DNA of 64,000 nucleotides from assembly GCA_963804645.1 (NCBI GenBank), contig CAWDRG010000015.1:128001-192000 (forward strand), written 5' to 3'. Each line of letters starts with the position of its first letter. Positions within the stretch are counted from its first letter, which is position 1. The translations under genes and the position numbers were made by a program. Of this stretch, positions 29,297 to 36,202 are shown in pieces. The notes under the pieces were generated by a model. That model did not search any database and was not told where the DNA came from. It saw only the letters and a program-made list of their open reading frames with translations. Source of the DNA: an uncultured Bacillota bacterium (GTDB lineage: Bacteria > Sysuimicrobiota > Sysuimicrobiia > Sysuimicrobiales > Segetimicrobiaceae).

Positions 29297-30484
29297 ATGC
29301 GAGAGACATCCCGGACACTGGTGTGCGCATGGCTGGCGGCCGCGTTATTCGTGGCCGGCCCGGCGAGTGGCGCATCTCCCCAACATGCGGCGCCTCCCAA
29401 GCCGCATTCCCCGACCGCGCACCCCTCGTTGGTGGCATCGGAGCAGTCGAAGCTCGCCGCGGTGCAGCAGCAGCTCGCCGAGCGGGAGCGGGAGCTCGCG
29501 AAGACGCGCGTCGTGGAACGCCAGGCGCTCACCCAGCTTTCGTGGGCCCAGGACCGGCTCGACCGCGCAAAGGTGAACCTCAAGCAGACGACGGGCGCGC
29601 TTGTCGGTACGCGGCAGGCGGTGGTCGGGGCCACCCGCGCGCTCCGGGCCGTGTCGGCGCGCCTCGAGACGCACGAAGCGATGATGGACGCCCGCCTCCG
29701 CGCCTCGTACGAGCGCGGCTCCCTCGGCTACCTGGACGTGGTGCTCGGCGCCACTAACTTCCGAGATTTTGTCACGCGCTCGTACCTCCTCGGCGTCATC
29801 ATCACCAGCGACCTGCGCCTGTACGAGCAGGTAGGGGCTGAGCGGCAGCAGCAGAGCGTCGTGCGCGAGACCCTCGCCGAGCGCGAACAGCGCCTCGCCG
29901 CGCAGCAGGAGCGCTGGCGCGTCAGCCGCGACCAGATCGCGCAGCTGGCGGAGGCCCGGGCCGATGTCGTCGCACGCGTGCGCGCGCAGCGGCTGGCGGA
30001 GGAAGAAGCGGTCCGCGAACTCGAGACCGAGTCCGTCCAGATCGCCAGAATCATCCAGCAGGCCACGCACGGCGGTCACGTCGGCCCGGTGCCGACGCTC
30101 GCCGGCGGCGCGCTGCTGTGGCCGGTGGAAGGGCGGATCAGTTCGCCGTACGGCTGGCGCGTGCATCCGATCTTCCGCACGCGCGAGTTCCATACCGGCA
30201 TCGACATCGCCGTCCCGTGGGGGACTCCGATTCATGCCGCGGCGGCGGGGACGGTGATCTTTACGGGGTGGATGCGCGGGTACGGGATGCTGGTGATTCT
30301 CGATCACGGCAACGGGCTCTCAACGACCTACTCCCACCTGTCGTCGTATCTCGTCCACGTCGGCGAACACGTTGACCGCGGCCAGGAGATCGCGAAGATC
30401 GGCAGCACCGGCTGGAGCACCGGTCCGCACCTGTTCTTCGAGGTGCGCGAGAATGGGCAGCCCGTCAATCCGCTCGGCAACTAA
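29297..30484 (+). CDS. Coiled-coil M23 peptidase (EnvC/CwlO-like murein hydrolase or activator)
   Basis: Signal peptide and coiled coil; SSPYGWRVHP, FHTGIDI, YSHL, GSTGWSTGPHL.FEVR. Confidence 0.9.
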   Translation: MRETSRTLVCAWLAAALFVAGPASGASPQHAAPPKPHSPTAHPSLVASEQSKLAAVQQQLAERERELAKTRVVERQALTQLSWAQDRLDRAKVNLKQTTGALVGTRQAVVGATRALRAVSARLETHEAMMDARLRASYERGSLGYLDVVLGATNFRDFVTRSYLLGVIITSDLRLYEQVGAERQQQSVVRETLAEREQRLAAQQERWRVSRDQIAQLAEARADVVARVRAQRLAEEEAVRELETESVQIARIIQQATHGGHVGPVPTLAGGALLWPVEGRISSPYGWRVHPIFRTREFHTGIDIAVPWGTPIHAAAAGTVIFTGWMRGYGMLVILDHGNGLSTTYSHLSSYLVHVGEHVDRGQEIAKIGSTGWSTGPHLFFEVRENGQPVNPLGN

Positions 30485-30653
30485 GAACCTATCCCAAAAA
30501 CCTCCGAAGCCAATACTACGACGAGACTTTCGATCGCTACCCTTGAGATTGCGGATAACGATCCTAGTAGCCCGTTACCCGCTTCAACAATCTTCCCAAG
30601 TGCATGCGGCGATTCCGAGGCGGACTCCCGGGCCCGTAGGCCTCGCCGACACG

Positions 30654-31310
30654 TCATGGGCGATTGACATCATTATCCAAGAGTCCGGCACGGATGCCCA
30701 GGATGGCGGCCTGCGTGCGGTCGGCGACACCCAACTTGCTGAGGATTGTGCTGACGTAATTGCGTATCGTTCCCTCCGAGAGGTGGATGCGCGCGGCGAT
30801 GTCTGCGTTGGAAAGCCCCTCCGCCAACAGCGCAAGCACCTCACGTTCACGCTCGCTCAGCTCCGCTAGGGGCATCGTGTTTGTCGGAGCGGTCCGCGCG
30901 ATCCGTGCGAAGACTTTCCCCGCGACCTTCGGGTGCACCGGCGTCTGCCCGGCCGCGACTGCTCGGATCGCGGCAATGAGGTCCTCGGCCGGAGTATCTT
31001 TGAGCACGTACCCGGCCGCACCGCTGCGGATGGCGTCGAAAACCCATTCGTCGTCATCGTAGGTTGTCAGGACGAGGACCCGTACCTTCGGGTGACCTTC
31101 GCGGATCCGCCGCGTCGCCTCAACCCCGTTCAGGCCGGGCATCTTGAGATCCATGAGGATCACGTGCGGCTGAGCCGCGGGGAGCAGGGCCAGGACCTGG
31201 GCACCGTCCTGCGCGGTGCCCACAATCTCAATCTCGGGCACCTCGTTTAGGATGACCCGCAGACCCTCGCGGACGACCTCCTGATCATCGCAAATCAGCA
31301 CGCGAATCAT
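30654..31310 (-). CDS. NarL/LuxR family response regulator
   Basis: ICDDQ, LMDLKMP, LTTYDDD, GYVLK, LSEREREVL..LAEG.SN..IA..L.LSEGT. Confidence 0.95.
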   Translation of the reverse strand: MIRVLICDDQEVVREGLRVILNEVPEIEIVGTAQDGAQVLALLPAAQPHVILMDLKMPGLNGVEATRRIREGHPKVRVLVLTTYDDDEWVFDAIRSGAAGYVLKDTPAEDLIAAIRAVAAGQTPVHPKVAGKVFARIARTAPTNTMPLAELSEREREVLALLAEGLSNADIAARIHLSEGTIRNYVSTILSKLGVADRTQAAILGIRAGLLDNDVNRP

Positions 31311-32524
31311 GCCGGGATCGGAAGAATCAGATTGAGTGAGGTGGGGCCGCCGAGCCTGCTTCTGATCTCAACGGAGCCGCCGAGCATCTCAGCCCGCTCG
31401 TGCATGCCCCTCACTCCCAGATGGTTTCCGCCATCGAGCGCGGCGGGATCGAACCCGCGACCGTCGTCCACGACCGTCAACCGAAGGTTGGCTCCGACTC
31501 GTTCAAGCGCGACGGTAATGGACTTGGCGTCCGCGTGGCGGGCGACGTTCTCGAGGGCTTCCTGCGCCACCCGGTAGACGGACTGCTCGATCTCCGGTTG
31601 AAAGCGGGGTCCCGGTTCGATGGTTCGCACCGTCATCGCCGCGCCCGTTCGCGCGGCGACGGATTCCGCCAGCCGACGCAGCGCCAGCGGCAACCCCAGT
31701 TCGTCGAGCGGCGAGGCGCGTAAGTCGTGCAGGGCACGCCGTGCGTCGGCCACGCCGGTTCGCGTCGTCATCAGCGCCCGGTCCAGCAGGCCGCGCGCCA
31801 CACGCGGATCTGTGTCCCATACGGATCGCACCGCCTCGAGTTGGATGGCCAGTGCGCTCAGCGTGTGGGCGAGCGTATCGTGGAGCTCGCGGGCCAGGCG
31901 ATTTCGTTCCGCCGCGGTCGCCAGTTGCTCCACGGTGGCCGCGTGTCGCGCCAGCTGCTCGTTTTGCCGCAGCAGCGCGCGGCGTCGTTCCTGTCCAGCC
32001 GCGTGGAGGTACACGGCGATATAGCCGCCCATCGCGAGCAGGCCGGTCCGCAAAAACACAAGGGTAAGAACCGAACCAATCCCCGGTCCTCCCAACCGAC
32101 CGCCCGGCCGCGCAAGATACCACAGACTATCCACGAGGGCGGTGCCGAGGACGATCGCATTCACACCGCGGGCGCCGTATTGCTGAGCCGCGACCACCGT
32201 GGGGACCAGCACGGCCACGATGAATCCGGGAGCCGCGATGAGTTCAGGACCGAGAAATTGCGCGGGCGGCGTCACCTGATGGACCACGATCGACAGACCT
32301 ACCGCCAGCGTCAGGGCGGTCGGCACGTAACGGCGCCCGAGTCGCTGAGGCAGTCCGGGCCACAACAGAAAGACCAGGACCAGCAGCCCTTCGGGTACGT
32401 AGAAGAGTACCGTCGGACGGGCCACCGCGAGGACGAGCAACATCCCCAGCTGCAGCCCAATCCCGGTCCGGAAGGTCCGGAGAACCACGGAATCCGGCAG
32501 AACCCCCGGCGCGTACCCTGGCAT
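31307..32524 (-). CDS. HisKA_3 membrane sensor histidine kinase
   Basis: About six TM helices with short loops; ERNRLARELHDTLAH, QEALEN..RHA, DDGRGF, GVRGMHER. Confidence 0.95.
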   Translation of the reverse strand: MPGYAPGVLPDSVVLRTFRTGIGLQLGMLLVLAVARPTVLFYVPEGLLVLVFLLWPGLPQRLGRRYVPTALTLAVGLSIVVHQVTPPAQFLGPELIAAPGFIVAVLVPTVVAAQQYGARGVNAIVLGTALVDSLWYLARPGGRLGGPGIGSVLTLVFLRTGLLAMGGYIAVYLHAAGQERRRALLRQNEQLARHAATVEQLATAAERNRLARELHDTLAHTLSALAIQLEAVRSVWDTDPRVARGLLDRALMTTRTGVADARRALHDLRASPLDELGLPLALRRLAESVAARTGAAMTVRTIEPGPRFQPEIEQSVYRVAQEALENVARHADAKSITVALERVGANLRLTVVDDGRGFDPAALDGGNHLGVRGMHERAEMLGGSVEIRSRLGGPTSLNLILPIPA

Positions 32525-32584
32525 AGTCCAGATTATATCGCCCCCACCGCATCCGCGACACGTGCCCGCGATCACAAGTCTGGC

Positions 32585-32598
32585 ATGACAGCGGTCAT
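32585..32598. promoter_or_regulatory. Palindrome, candidate response-regulator binding site
   Basis: ATGAC-AGCG-GTCAT in the divergent intergenic region between the kinase and the peptide genes. Confidence 0.5.
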
Positions 32599-32713
32599 AT
32601 TCCCACGCTGAGCGGCGCTGCCCCAGATCGTGACGGTGTCCACTACGCGAGGGCCGGAGGGTGCGCTACCATGCGGCCTAGCAACTCAAAAACGCGAGAG
32701 GGAGGGGATGCAA

Positions 32714-32893
32714 ATGGAGCGGCTGCAGAAGGTCGTGGTGAGCGGGCTGGCGTTGATTGCGGTGGGTGTCGCGGTGGCACTGGCGCCCATGACGGCGCGG
32801 GCGGACGAGCAGGTCCCGGGCAACCCCGGCGGCGCGACGCAGATTCCGGCGTCCCAGGTCGGAAACGCCCAGGGCGACGGCAGCGGGCAGTAG
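32714..32893 (+). CDS. Small secreted peptide A (59 aa; predicted 29-aa mature peptide)
   Basis: RBS GGAGG; Sec-type leader ending ARA; mature DEQVPGNPGGATQIPASQVGNAQGDGSGQ. Confidence 0.65.
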   Translation: MERLQKVVVSGLALIAVGVAVALAPMTARADEQVPGNPGGATQIPASQVGNAQGDGSGQ

Positions 32894-33009
32894 GGGAGGA
32901 GGCGCGGGTTATGGACCGCGCCGGAATCACGAGAACGGGAATCTGGCACAGCCAGCGGCGCACGTTCCGCTGGCTGTGCCGCCAACTCGTCGTACAGGAG
33001 GGGAGCGAC

Positions 33010-33165
33010 ATGGAACCGATCAGGACGGCGCTCGGGAGGCTCGTGCTCGGGGTGATACTGATGCTGGCGGCGCCCGCGCTTGCGCAGATCAACGTCACGC
33101 CCGTTCCGCCGGCAACCGGCGGTGTGAGTCAGATCAATGGTCCGGACCAGGGGACCGGACAATGA
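33010..33165 (+). CDS. Small secreted peptide B (51 aa; predicted 26-aa mature peptide)
   Basis: RBS AGGAGG; leader ending ALA; mature QINVTPVPPATGGVSQINGPDQGTGQ. An alternative in-frame ATG lies at 32911. Confidence 0.65.
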   Translation: MEPIRTALGRLVLGVILMLAAPALAQINVTPVPPATGGVSQINGPDQGTGQ

Positions 33166-33887
33166 CTCTTATTCTCACCCAAGTCATCCTACAATCGATC
33201 TCGTCGACGCTCGACTGGGTCGGCTTCTACGTCGGCATCCGCACCGTCCCGGGAGACCAGTCCCGACAGAGATTCTGGATCGTCGCTTCGGCAGTCGTGT
33301 TCGGGGTATGGCTGTTTGCGATCGTGCTGTTGGCCTCGCAGCACGTCTTCCGCAACGATGTCCGGCCCCCGCGCATCCCCATGACGCTGCTCGCGACGCT
33401 CGCCATTGGATATCTCTCTCTCATGTCGCAAACGTTCCGCCGCATCATTGCTGGCATTCCCCAACATTGGCTGATCGGCATTCAAACGTTCAGAATTCTC
33501 GGCGCGGTGTTCCTGATTCGCTATATTCAGGGCCAGTTGCCTGGTGTGTTTGCGATTCCTGCCGGCGTGGGGGACATACTGACAGGAGTCCTGGCACCGT
33601 TCGTCGCGTACTGGTGGTATGCGGGTAAACCCTACGCCCGCGGCGCCGCGATTGCCTGGAACCTGTTCGGCATGGCCGATCTCATCAACGCCCTCACGAT
33701 CGGAGTGCTCACGCGGGGCGGGGGCATCGTGTTTCCCCTCGTGCTCATTCCGGTTTATGCGGTGCCGCGAGCGCTCCTCGTCCACTCGTACTCACTCATC
33801 GGCCTGCTCCGCAACACGTCGCTACGGCCAAAGCCGACAGAGTCACTGCATTACGGACCCGAGATCCCCCGTGGGTCACCGCAATGA
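33162..33887 (+). CDS. Uncharacterised polytopic membrane protein
   Basis: About seven hydrophobic segments; WLIGIQTFRILG, LPGVFAIPAG.GD, WNLFGMADL, FPLVLIP. ATGA-coupled to peptide B. Confidence 0.75.
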   Translation: MTLILTQVILQSISSTLDWVGFYVGIRTVPGDQSRQRFWIVASAVVFGVWLFAIVLLASQHVFRNDVRPPRIPMTLLATLAIGYLSLMSQTFRRIIAGIPQHWLIGIQTFRILGAVFLIRYIQGQLPGVFAIPAGVGDILTGVLAPFVAYWWYAGKPYARGAAIAWNLFGMADLINALTIGVLTRGGGIVFPLVLIPVYAVPRALLVHSYSLIGLLRNTSLRPKPTESLHYGPEIPRGSPQ

Positions 33888-34460
33888 TGTCCGCCACCCC
33901 GATCGGCGCACACCGACCGCCGCTGTGGCTCAAGCTGCCAACAGCCGCCGGCAACGCCGTGCAACTGATCGGGCTCGCGATCGGCGCCGCGCTGACGTAT
34001 GCGGCGACGGCGGCGCACTGGCCCGCAGTGGTTCGGATCGTGTTGATGATGGCGGGGTGGGTCGCCCTCCTTTGGTCCAGCCACGCGATTGCGCATTGGG
34101 GCGTTGGCCGGCTCGTCGGCATCCAGTTTCGCGGGTATGGCATCAGGGGCAGCGACCACCCGGAGATCTATCCTCCGCGAACTCGGGCGTTCTTGGCGCA
34201 CGTTCCTTTCTTTGTTGCGCTCACGAGTAAAGAGCATGAAACGATCTGCTCCAATAGCGAAGGCGCTCATGTTCAGCGCCGGCGAAACGTCGACAACGCT
34301 GTGGACCCTCGTTGCGGCCTGGTATGTGACGCGTGAGCGCGCCCCAGCCGGCCGCGCGCTGTTGGTCTTCACGCTTATCTGGAACCTCGTCGCGACAGTA
34401 CTCACCAGCCGTGCATCGTCGGGAGACTATGCCAAAGCTCTTCGTGCTTATCGGGACTGA
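33884..34460 (+). CDS. Membrane protein with HxxxH...N...GD motifs (site-2-protease/zincin-like), frameshift near 34232
   Basis: SHAIAHW..GRLVGI in the first frame; MFSAG..WN..SSGDY in the second frame. Restoring 2 bp at AAAGAG(AG)C joins them. Confidence 0.55.
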
Positions 34461-34517
34461 TTGCAATCCGAGTCCCTTGATATGATCAAAGACCGTACCT
34501 CGATCGTACAGAGGTTG

Positions 34518-35350
34518 ATGCCGATGGCGGCGCGACACAAGTCGAAGCGACGACTTCGCACGATCTGGCGGATCCCTGAGGAGGTCTGGGCCCAACTCGA
34601 GCCGCTCCTCCCCCCCGAAAAGGCGCCCGGGACGCCCGGGCGCCCGGTGGTTCCCTTCCGCCAGGTCATGGACGGCATCCTGTACGTGCTCCGCACGGGC
34701 TGCCAATGGAAAGCGTTGCCCAGGGAATATGGATCCGGCTCCACCTGCCACCGCCGCTTCCAGGCATGGGTCGACGCCGGCGTCTTCGAGCGGCTGTGGG
34801 GCACACTGCTGACCCGGTACGACGAACTCCGAGGGATCCAGTGGCGCTGGCAATCGCTGGACAGCGCCACGGTCAAGGCGCCGTTGGGGGGGCTCACACA
34901 GGGCCCAATCCGACGGATCGCGGCAAGCTCGGGACGAAGCGCCACACGCTGACCGATCAACGCGGCGCCCCGCTCGCCGTCGTGGTGACCGGGGCCAACT
35001 GCCATGACATGAAAGCGGCGACGGCCACACTGGATAATCTCCCCATCCGGCGGCCCCGGCCGACGCCTGAGCATCCGCAACATCTGTGCCTCGACAAAGG
35101 ATATGACTATCCGGAGATCGAGGTGGCCTTGCGGAAGCGGCATTACGTCCCTCATATGCGCCATCGCGGTGAATGCCTCCCGAGACGTCGCCGGCATCCG
35201 GCGCGTCGCTGGGTCGTGGAACGCACCGGCGCCTGGCACAACCGGTTTCGGAAACTTCTCGTCCGCTACGAGAAGCGGATGGAAAATTACCATGCGTTGG
35301 TGCATTTCGCATGCGCCCTGATCGTCTACCGGCTCACGGTTTTGGGATAG
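34518..35350 (+). CDS. IS5 family transposase in two ORFs joined by a likely -1 frameshift at a G7 run (about 34886-34892)
   Basis: ILYVLRTGCQWKALP..YGSGSTCHRRFQ.W, LDS; GPNPTDRGKLGTKRH, LDKGYD, RWVVER..AW..RFRKL. Confidence 0.9.
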
Positions 35351-35386
35351 GTTCTAAGGCGGATCGCGGCGACGCGCCGGGCCTGG

Positions 35387-36202
35387 TCACACCCGATCGA
35401 GAAACGCGCGCAGACGGCTGAAGAGGGCGTCCGGCTCTTCCGCCTGCGGGGAATGCCCGCTGTGCTCGAACACATGCAGCTCCGCGTGGGGCAGCAGCCG
35501 CTGAATCTCCAGTGACTCTTCGACGGGGCAGATCCAGTCGTGGCGGCCGACGCCGATGAACGCCGGGACCCCGACCTTCGATAGGACCGGCCGCACGTCG
35601 TAACGCGCATAGTCGAGGATCAGCGCGCGCCGGGTCTCCGGGTCGAACGACCGCCCCGCAAGGCTGGTGGGGGCGCGGCGCTTATCGTAGTAGTAGAGCG
35701 GTTGGATCGTCTCGAACGCGCGCTGGAATGCCGCGGCCTCACGGAGCGACCCGTCCCACAGCCGTCGGTACGCCGCGATGATCTCCGGCGTGCCCTGGCG
35801 TTCGGCGTTCTCGGTCGCCCGAGCCATGAACCCGCCGCTCGGGGCGGTCCCGATCAGCACCAGCGCGCGCGGCTCGGACGGATACCGGGTTGCGTAGACG
35901 AGTGCGGCGAAGCCGCCGGCCGAGGTCCCCGCCACGATGGGATGCTCCAGGCCGAGCGCGCCGATCAGCGCGTGCAGGTCCTCCGCCTGGTCCGCGATCG
36001 TGTACGTCTCGATCGGAGCGCGCGACGACGCCCCGTGCCCGCGGTGTTCGTAGGCGACCAGCTGCACGCGGTCTGCCAGGGACCGATAGGGGCCGATCCG
36101 GTCGGGATGGCCCATCCCGGGTCCTCCGTGCACGAGCACGTACGGCGGTCCTGCCCCGGTCGTGTCGTACGACAGCTCGACCCCGCGCACGCGCACCTTC
36201 AT
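35387..36202 (-). CDS. Alpha/beta hydrolase (proline iminopeptidase-like)
   Basis: HGGPG, RGHGAS, GTSAGG, GRHDWICP, SGHSP. Confidence 0.85.
   Translation of the reverse strand: MKVRVRGVELSYDTTGAGPPYVLVHGGPGMGHPDRIGPYRSLADRVQLVAYEHRGHGASSRAPIETYTIADQAEDLHALIGALGLEHPIVAGTSAGGFAALVYATRYPSEPRALVLIGTAPSGGFMARATENAERQGTPEIIAAYRRLWDGSLREAAAFQRAFETIQPLYYYDKRRAPTSLAGRSFDPETRRALILDYARYDVRPVLSKVGVPAFIGVGRHDWICPVEESLEIQRLLPHAELHVFEHSGHSPQAEEPDALFSRLRAFLDRV

Follow-up and report, generated by a model that had tools for sequence, protein, structure and literature searches.

Among described two-component systems, the closest to the locus analyzed here are LiaFSR, VraSR and MadRS of the Bacillota, in which a HisKA_3 histidine kinase, its sensor embedded in the membrane and without a large outer domain, is paired with a NarL/GerE-type response regulator and adjoins a target operon for small or membrane proteins. 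LiaS has two transmembrane segments. In ComQXPA, too, a polytopic HisKA_3 kinase works with a NarL-type regulator and a small peptide gene is close by; this peptide gene lies upstream in the same operon as the kinase, and the ComX pre-peptide has no Sec signal peptide and carries a modified Trp. MadRS has been presented as a membrane antimicrobial peptide defense system (PMC10614854). Here we analyze a locus spanning positions 30654-35352 of a 64,000-nucleotide window (positions 128,001 to 192,000 of CAWDRG010000015.1, assembly GCA_963804645.1; part of contig C15 in our numbering) from the 5.3 Mb, 69% guanine-plus-cytosine (GC) genome of an uncultured Bacillota bacterium. From its letters alone the locus had been taken for one six-gene peptide-sensing module, in which a two-component system stands divergent from two paralogous secreted peptides and two membrane proteins (the original prediction). 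Our analysis shows a movable block of four genes, encoding the regulator, the kinase, a small secreted peptide (pepA) and a membrane protein (mem1), to which we give roughly an even chance of being an envelope-stress-type two-component cassette whose divergent output would be pepA, a hairpin and mem1.

The regulator and kinase genes lie on the minus strand, and pepA, the hairpin, a second small open reading frame (ORF; pepB), mem1, a second membrane protein gene (mem2) and an IS5 transposase lie on the plus strand. The features of the block are as follows (aa, amino acids; SD, Shine-Dalgarno sequence).

30654..31310, minus strand: NarL/GerE-type response regulator (RR), 218 aa, translationally coupled to the kinase (Pfam Response_reg and GerE)
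31307..32524, minus strand: HisKA_3 histidine kinase (HK), 405 aa from ATG 32524 (Pfam HisKA_3 and HATPase_c)
32525..32713, no strand: shared divergent control region of 189 bp, aligning with that of the sister species in conserved blocks
32585..32598, no strand: palindrome ATGAC-N4-GTCAT (5-4-5), candidate regulator binding site, its half-sites kept in the sister species
32714..32893, plus strand: pepA, 59-aa precursor with a predicted Sec signal peptide and, as its mature part, an acidic 29-aa peptide whose C-terminus is GNAQGDGSGQ (homologs, SD, signal peptide)
32945..32980, plus strand: perfect 14-bp hairpin 3' of pepA without a T-tract, a candidate attenuator, terminator or RNA-stabilizing element (inverted repeat)
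33162..33887, plus strand: mem1, 241-aa polytopic membrane protein of a widespread unannotated family (homolog search, AF2 model)

In a sister species of the same genus (G001; the window's own genome is G000) the gene order is RR, HK, then pepA, hairpin and mem1, with identities to the window of 77% for RR, 69% for HK, 71% for pepA and 78% for mem1. DNA homology between the two genomes covers window positions 30638-32989 and 33152-33881, ending at the block edges, and the genes flanking the G001 block find their best G000 matches on other contigs, so that the four genes travel together. GC content across 30200-35400 is 60-66% compared with 70-73% outside, and an IS5-family element adjoins the block. 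RR, HK, pepA and mem1 behave as a single movable block of about 3.25 kb, set in a different neighborhood in the sister species, in keeping with the mobility that the original prediction had proposed. The unity of the six genes did not hold: only the four-gene block recurs, in that one sister species, and pepB and mem2 are not in it. In the best-supported account, pepB and mem2 are lineage-specific additions.

The two-component pair is intact and of the HisKA_3/NarL class, with genes that overlap in ATGA. The regulator carries Response_reg (PF00072, 1.4e-27, 96.5 bits) and GerE (PF00196, 1e-18, 67.1 bits) domains, and the kinase HisKA_3 (PF07730, 2.4e-17, 63.7 bits, cut-off 24) and HATPase_c (PF02518, 2.5e-13, 50.9 bits, cut-off 26.4). 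By hydropathy, the first ~190 residues of the kinase hold 5-6 hydrophobic segments separated by short loops, with no large external domain; both this architecture and the divergent orientation of the pair relative to pepA had been anticipated correctly. It is in the 5-6 transmembrane segments, in having no LiaF-like accessory gene, and in target genes (pepA and mem1) that belong to unannotated families that the locus differs from LiaFSR, VraSR and MadRS. The closest named families, all scoring far below their cut-offs, are MadR (the best NCBIfam match), NarL and UvrY for the regulator, and MctS, UhpB, NarQ/X, MadS and LiaS for the kinase. Orthologs of the kinase sensor domain occur in 2 of 61 related genomes, namely G000 and G001, and a metagenome scan with the kinase as query returned 5 distant relatives (37-42% identity) and no further orthologous loci.

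Between the kinase gene and pepA, the ATGAC-N4-GTCAT palindrome that the original prediction had located in the shared intergenic region is indeed present (ATGACAGCGGTCAT, 32585-32598), as the only match in the window against 0.05 expected and as one of 4 genome-wide against ~1.1 expected. Its G001 form is ATGACAGTTGTCAT, with both half-sites kept amid diverged flanks. The hairpin beyond pepA has a folding energy of -36.4 kcal/mol (z -5.28) and is also kept in G001, where a change affects both arms (GGCAC/GTGCC to GGTAC/GTACC). A consensus scan of 32450-33250 reported no terminator, the hairpin not being called because the scan requires a T-run.

The peptide gene pepA has an SD, GGGAGGGG, 6 nt 5' of ATG 32714, a start preferred over ATG 32708 because of the SD spacing, the MER start of most homologs and a soil variant that alters 32713. 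Its signal peptide has the n-h-c layout, with cleavage predicted between ARA and DE. A word-indexed search retrieved 8 predicted homologs of 52-62 aa at 63-100% identity. HMMER, run against 1.84 billion cluster representatives, returned just 29 proteins (E<=0.001), almost all of them 44-113 aa long and built from a signal peptide, a variable middle and a conserved C-terminus. When 61 related genomes were searched in six frames with the profile, matches were found in G000 and 5 of the 6 other genus members and were weak and partial elsewhere. Six of the seven genus members thus carry the family; it is multi-copy, and across 94 genomes of the order all 24 matches reaching the C-terminal end of the model come from this genus. 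A hidden Markov model run over 17 loci gave 22 ORFs, of which 17 end in (Y/W)(Q/L)xGNAQGDGxG(Q/R/K) or a close variant of it (one being a pseudogene with an in-frame stop), four end in YLQ(N/Q)NQ and one matches through its signal peptide alone. We define the family by a signal peptide together with a C-terminal (Y/W/F)(Q/L)xGN(A/S)QGD..G(Q/R/K), and pepA has both. A GGAGG-type SD precedes the family copies for which the upstream sequence was inspected. No Pfam or NCBIfam model matches the family, the GNAQGDG motif was not found in the literature searched, and the ESM Atlas places pepA only in an unnamed cluster (0.80). To judge from its sequence conservation, the pepA family is a real, previously undescribed family of predicted Sec-exported peptides restricted to one genus, and the original prediction was right in recognizing no known family here.

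Several observations concern other members and look-alikes of the family. One decayed copy (G000:C11:20525-20716; L003 6023-6181) carries a TAA in frame, and its signal peptide is disrupted; it still ends in GNAQGDGNGQ. At L025 (G004:C18, 6126-7536), a two-gene unit comprising a 58-60-aa signal-peptide ORF (MRKILAIV...) followed by a 65-aa GNAQGDG-family peptide is tandemly duplicated within 1.4 kb, and at L001 (G000:C10) a 64-aa secreted ORF stands immediately 5' of a family member. The C-terminal part of the profile also matched 23 stretches of the 3520-aa protein P0159, a collagen-like repeat protein; we read this as a low-complexity match. We also dropped a reading of the C-terminal motif as a lasso peptide or other ribosomally synthesized and post-translationally modified peptide, because no maturation genes occur among the scanned neighbors and the leader is of Sec type.

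The original prediction expected the peptides to co-occur with HisKA_3/NarL genes and with both membrane protein families. Among 18 peptide-family loci (the window and 17 others, leaving out further matches at G001:C10 and G003:C10), the two-component pair is found at 2, the window and its G001 ortholog; mem1 is found at the same two, and mem2 at none of the other loci. From the other direction, the kinase/regulator pair, pepA and mem2 are each absent from all 79 mem1 loci outside the genus. Homologs occurring independently of the two-component system had been named in the prediction itself as what would speak against it, and this is largely what is seen. The other peptide copies adjoin unrelated genes with no consistent partner: the regulators among their neighbors are Crp-like, GerE solo, MalT-like LuxR and HxlR, and further neighbors include AhpC (twice), a cupredoxin propeller with HMA, and a DCC1-like protein. 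That many scattered paralogs share an invariant C-terminus suggests a partner or processing step common to them, not a private signal for this kinase.

These counts bear on whether pepA might be the input of the kinase, in an autoinducing loop of the ComP/ComA or Agr kind where processed pepA, or its C-terminal ~13-mer, would be sensed by the kinase and would raise pepA expression through the regulator. Such a loop would suit a peptide gene divergent from a polytopic HisKA_3 kinase that has no other obvious ligand domain, the co-inheritance of the four-gene block, and a precursor whose signal peptide, variable middle and invariant C-terminus resemble pro-peptides with an active C-terminal signal. 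We nevertheless consider it distinctly unlikely, since 16 of the 18 family loci have no two-component system, the kinase sensor turned up in just 2 of 61 genomes, compared with 6 of the 7 genus members for the peptides, the invariance of the C-terminus across many paralogs argues against paralog-specific signaling, and Pfam reveals no ComQ-, AgrB- or tetratricopeptide repeat (TPR) receptor-like gene at the locus. A predicted-complex run with the kinase sensor (residues 1-205) and mature pepA gave a score of 0.00, which counts neither way.

Comparison with individual peptide-signaling systems is in line with this assessment. Unlike ComX, pepA has a classical Sec signal peptide ending in ARA, no Trp in its mature part and a gene divergent from that of the kinase, and, by Pfam, the 10 proteins between 28985 and 35350 include none with the polyprenyl synthase domain of a ComQ-type prenyltransferase. 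The regulator is of the GerE type and not, as in Agr, LytTR, and neither mem1 nor mem2 matches AgrB in Pfam at E<=0.01. The Phr/RRNPP peptides are Sec-exported pro-peptides with an active C-terminal signal part, and pepA is like them in its signal peptide, variable spacer, conserved C-terminal end and small family size range (44-113 aa); it differs in that the C-terminus of its family is nearly invariant across paralogs instead of paralog-specific, and Pfam finds no RRNPP-type cytoplasmic TPR receptor beside pepA at the locus. At the paralog locus L028, a MalT-like TPR/GerE regulator lies nearby. Plant CLE peptides are laid out in a similar way, with a signal peptide, a variable middle and then a conserved motif at the C-terminus, and the GNAQGDG peptides could by analogy be genus-wide pro-peptides whose C-terminal ~13 residues form a common signal or ligand, each paralog being wired to a different regulator and the kinase here both sensing and driving its peptide; this we hold to be more doubtful still.

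The second small ORF lies between the hairpin and mem1.

33010..33165, plus strand: pepB, 51-aa signal-peptide ORF, ATGA-coupled to mem1 (SD, signal peptide, soil contigs)

An SD, AGGAGGGG, stands ~6 nt 5' of ATG 33010, and the n-h-c signal peptide of pepB ends in ALA before a Q; the good ribosome-binding sites and AxA signal peptides originally ascribed to both small ORFs are therefore present, as is the coupling of pepB to a polytopic membrane protein, mem1, through an ATGA overlap. The paralogy claimed for the two mature parts failed. With pepB left out of the family profile, its mature part reaches 1.9 bits, and that of pepA 37.6 bits. The 9.8 bits of whole pepB come mostly from its signal peptide, and, lacking the C-terminal motif, pepB falls outside the GNAQGDG family. 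Its nearest relatives are three small signal-peptide ORFs in genome G010, at 54-58% identity. At the corresponding G001 site there is a 90-column alignment gap with possible remnants at both ends. Two soil contigs span pepB without indels, and their substitutions, at 33022, 33054 and 33120, are all synonymous by codon count, so that by its pattern of substitution pepB still looks like a real gene. High-GC DNA yields many spurious ORFs, and both small ORFs might on that ground be chance open frames; the preservation of length, signal peptide and C-terminus among pepA homologs in 6 genomes and in metagenomes, the SDs of GGAGG type, and these silent, indel-free differences in pepB make that scarcely credible. 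In G010, locus L147 (G010:C92, 969-2550) carries a divergent HxlR gene, two tandem pepB-like signal-peptide ORFs and then a DoxX membrane protein, a layout that repeats that of the window, from regulator through small secreted peptides to membrane protein, with different parts.

For mem1 we found 920 homologs at E<=1e-3, with 56-70% identity in Alphaproteobacteria, Verrucomicrobiota and Acidobacteriota and 82% in another genus of the same family; over the family as a whole, identity between phyla spans 56-78%. Fifty members of the family gave no Pfam match, and the ESM Atlas places mem1 only in an unnamed cluster (0.91). The AF2 model has a pLDDT of 92.7 (a first model from a shallow alignment, pLDDT 47.1, was discarded); it gave no Foldseek match at E<=0.001 and, with VIA-align, only generic helical-bundle matches (Z<=11.8) and no specific PDB relative. 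A relationship to DoxX was rejected (hhalign probability 0.2). The invariant polar residues Q108, R111, D138 and H208 fall inside helices predicted by the model. Elsewhere mem1 is usually paired with a TetR or HxlR one-component regulator, and a TetR-family gene, confirmed by Pfam for representatives, lies near it, usually divergently, in 19 of 28 close loci; in the window and G001 the two-component pair plus pepA takes the place of the one-component regulator found in these single membrane-protein cassettes. Both mem1 and mem2 have low codon scores relative to native genes, and on sequence evidence mem1 looks horizontally transferred.

Two further observations touch on the neighbors of mem1. 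Among its Acidobacteriota loci (L054-L057, L063), four have a ~148-aa ORF with a signal-peptide-like start directly 5' of mem1, which suggests that a secreted partner upstream of mem1 may recur with unrelated sequences. In addition, P0007, a pepA homolog, and P0028, a mem1 homolog, each derive from a JGI contig 1307 nt long; they may lie on the same contig, which would make a third pepA-mem1 adjacency.

Downstream of mem1 lie the last two features of the locus.

33884..34460, plus strand: mem2, frameshifted copy of a rare ~190-aa membrane protein family with motif SHAIAHW ... GDYAKA (alignment with intact homologs)
34461..35352, plus strand: IS5-family transposase region in two reading frames (NCBIfam transpos_IS5_3)

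The original prediction had mem1 coupled to an HxxxH...GD membrane protein gene. The coupling stands, since mem1 and mem2 overlap in ATGA, but mem2 is not intact: its homologs are single ORFs of 179-201 aa, with which the two frames of the window align end to end, the frame changing between 34231 and 34233. The frameshift reflects either a pseudogene or an assembly error; soil contigs match the locus only in places, and none covers 33950-34600, where the site lies. The family is tiny (9 matches), and all of its members have the motif HAxxH, without the Glu of HExxH. Assignment to Peptidase M50 was rejected, with 2 of 8 homologs matching and a best score of 22.5 bits against a cut-off of 27.2. 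At L123 (G009:C365, 6853-8798), a mem1-like gene (39% identity) stands back to back with an HxlR gene and is followed 4 nt further by an intact mem2, so the mem1 and mem2 families recur as a pair without the peptide or the two-component system. The adjoining transposase is split into a DUF4096 frame and then a DDE frame, which score 119.6 and 143 bits against the transpos_IS5_3 cut-off of 110 and place the element in the IS5 family; a second copy, at G000:C9:1396332-1397105, is 90% identical and corresponds to window positions 34572-35352.

The separate distributions of these parts raise the possibility of a mosaic without functional linkage, composed of a stand-alone pepA, mem1 (with or without mem2) as acquired cargo downstream, and a two-component pair that would regulate itself or something else. 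Besides that independent distribution, this account would accommodate the poor native codon scores of mem1 and mem2, the 65-82% identity of mem1 in other phyla and genera where it accompanies TetR, the association of mem1-like and mem2 genes with HxlR in G009, and the strong hairpin separating pepA from the genes downstream. Set against it are the contiguity of the four genes in two species despite differing surroundings, the conservation of the intergenic sequence with G001, and the lack of a TetR or HxlR partner for mem1 here, which implies some other control. We regard a mosaic as possible and somewhat unlikely.

In favor of the envelope-stress cassette are the intact and coupled two-component pair, the short-looped multi-segment sensor of the kinase, the co-inheritance of the four genes, the rare and conserved palindrome, the very stable hairpin kept in G001, and the SD, signal peptide and conserved homologs of pepA; in addition, the closest named families, MadR/MadS and LiaS, are envelope or antimicrobial-peptide stress systems. 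Under it the kinase, having only membrane-embedded segments, would most likely read the state of the membrane or envelope and not a soluble ligand, as do LiaS, MadS and DesK, and would, given the domains present, phosphorylate the regulator. The regulator would bind the conserved ATGACAGnnGTCAT palindrome in the 189-bp control region and from there control pepA, pepB where present, and mem1, and probably also its own operon. The pepA precursor would be exported by Sec and cut after ARA to release an acidic, Gly-, Asn- and Gln-rich peptide of 29 residues that bears the invariant C-terminal GNAQGDGxGQ of its family. The strong hairpin after pepA could keep peptide levels well above those of the membrane protein. 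The peptide would then be an output of the system. Five points weigh against such a cassette. The pair misses the equivalog cut-offs of MadRS and LiaSR by a wide margin (MadR 170.5 bits against 300, MadS 78.5 against 500, LiaS 70.2 against 450). The conservation of gene order and palindrome is weak evidence, because there are only two carriers and they are congeneric. A 5-4-5 palindrome is not a priori rare in a 189-nt region (we estimate ~0.2 for a fixed spacer). The consensus scan of 32450-33250 reported no sigma-70 promoter. Finally, as mem1 is elsewhere under one-component regulators, its presence here could be a late insertion.

What had appeared as an attractive six-gene peptide-sensing module thus resolves into parts with separate histories. 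The peptide family, multi-copy, limited to one genus and invariant at its C-terminus, is a clean and testable unknown in uncultured high-GC Bacillota, and mem1 belongs to a family of more than 900 homologs spread over soil phyla at unusually high identity. If the regulator controls pepA and mem1, the locus would connect a family of secreted peptides absent from databases with a two-component system of the envelope type, and would offer a first regulatory handle on two unannotated membrane-protein families.

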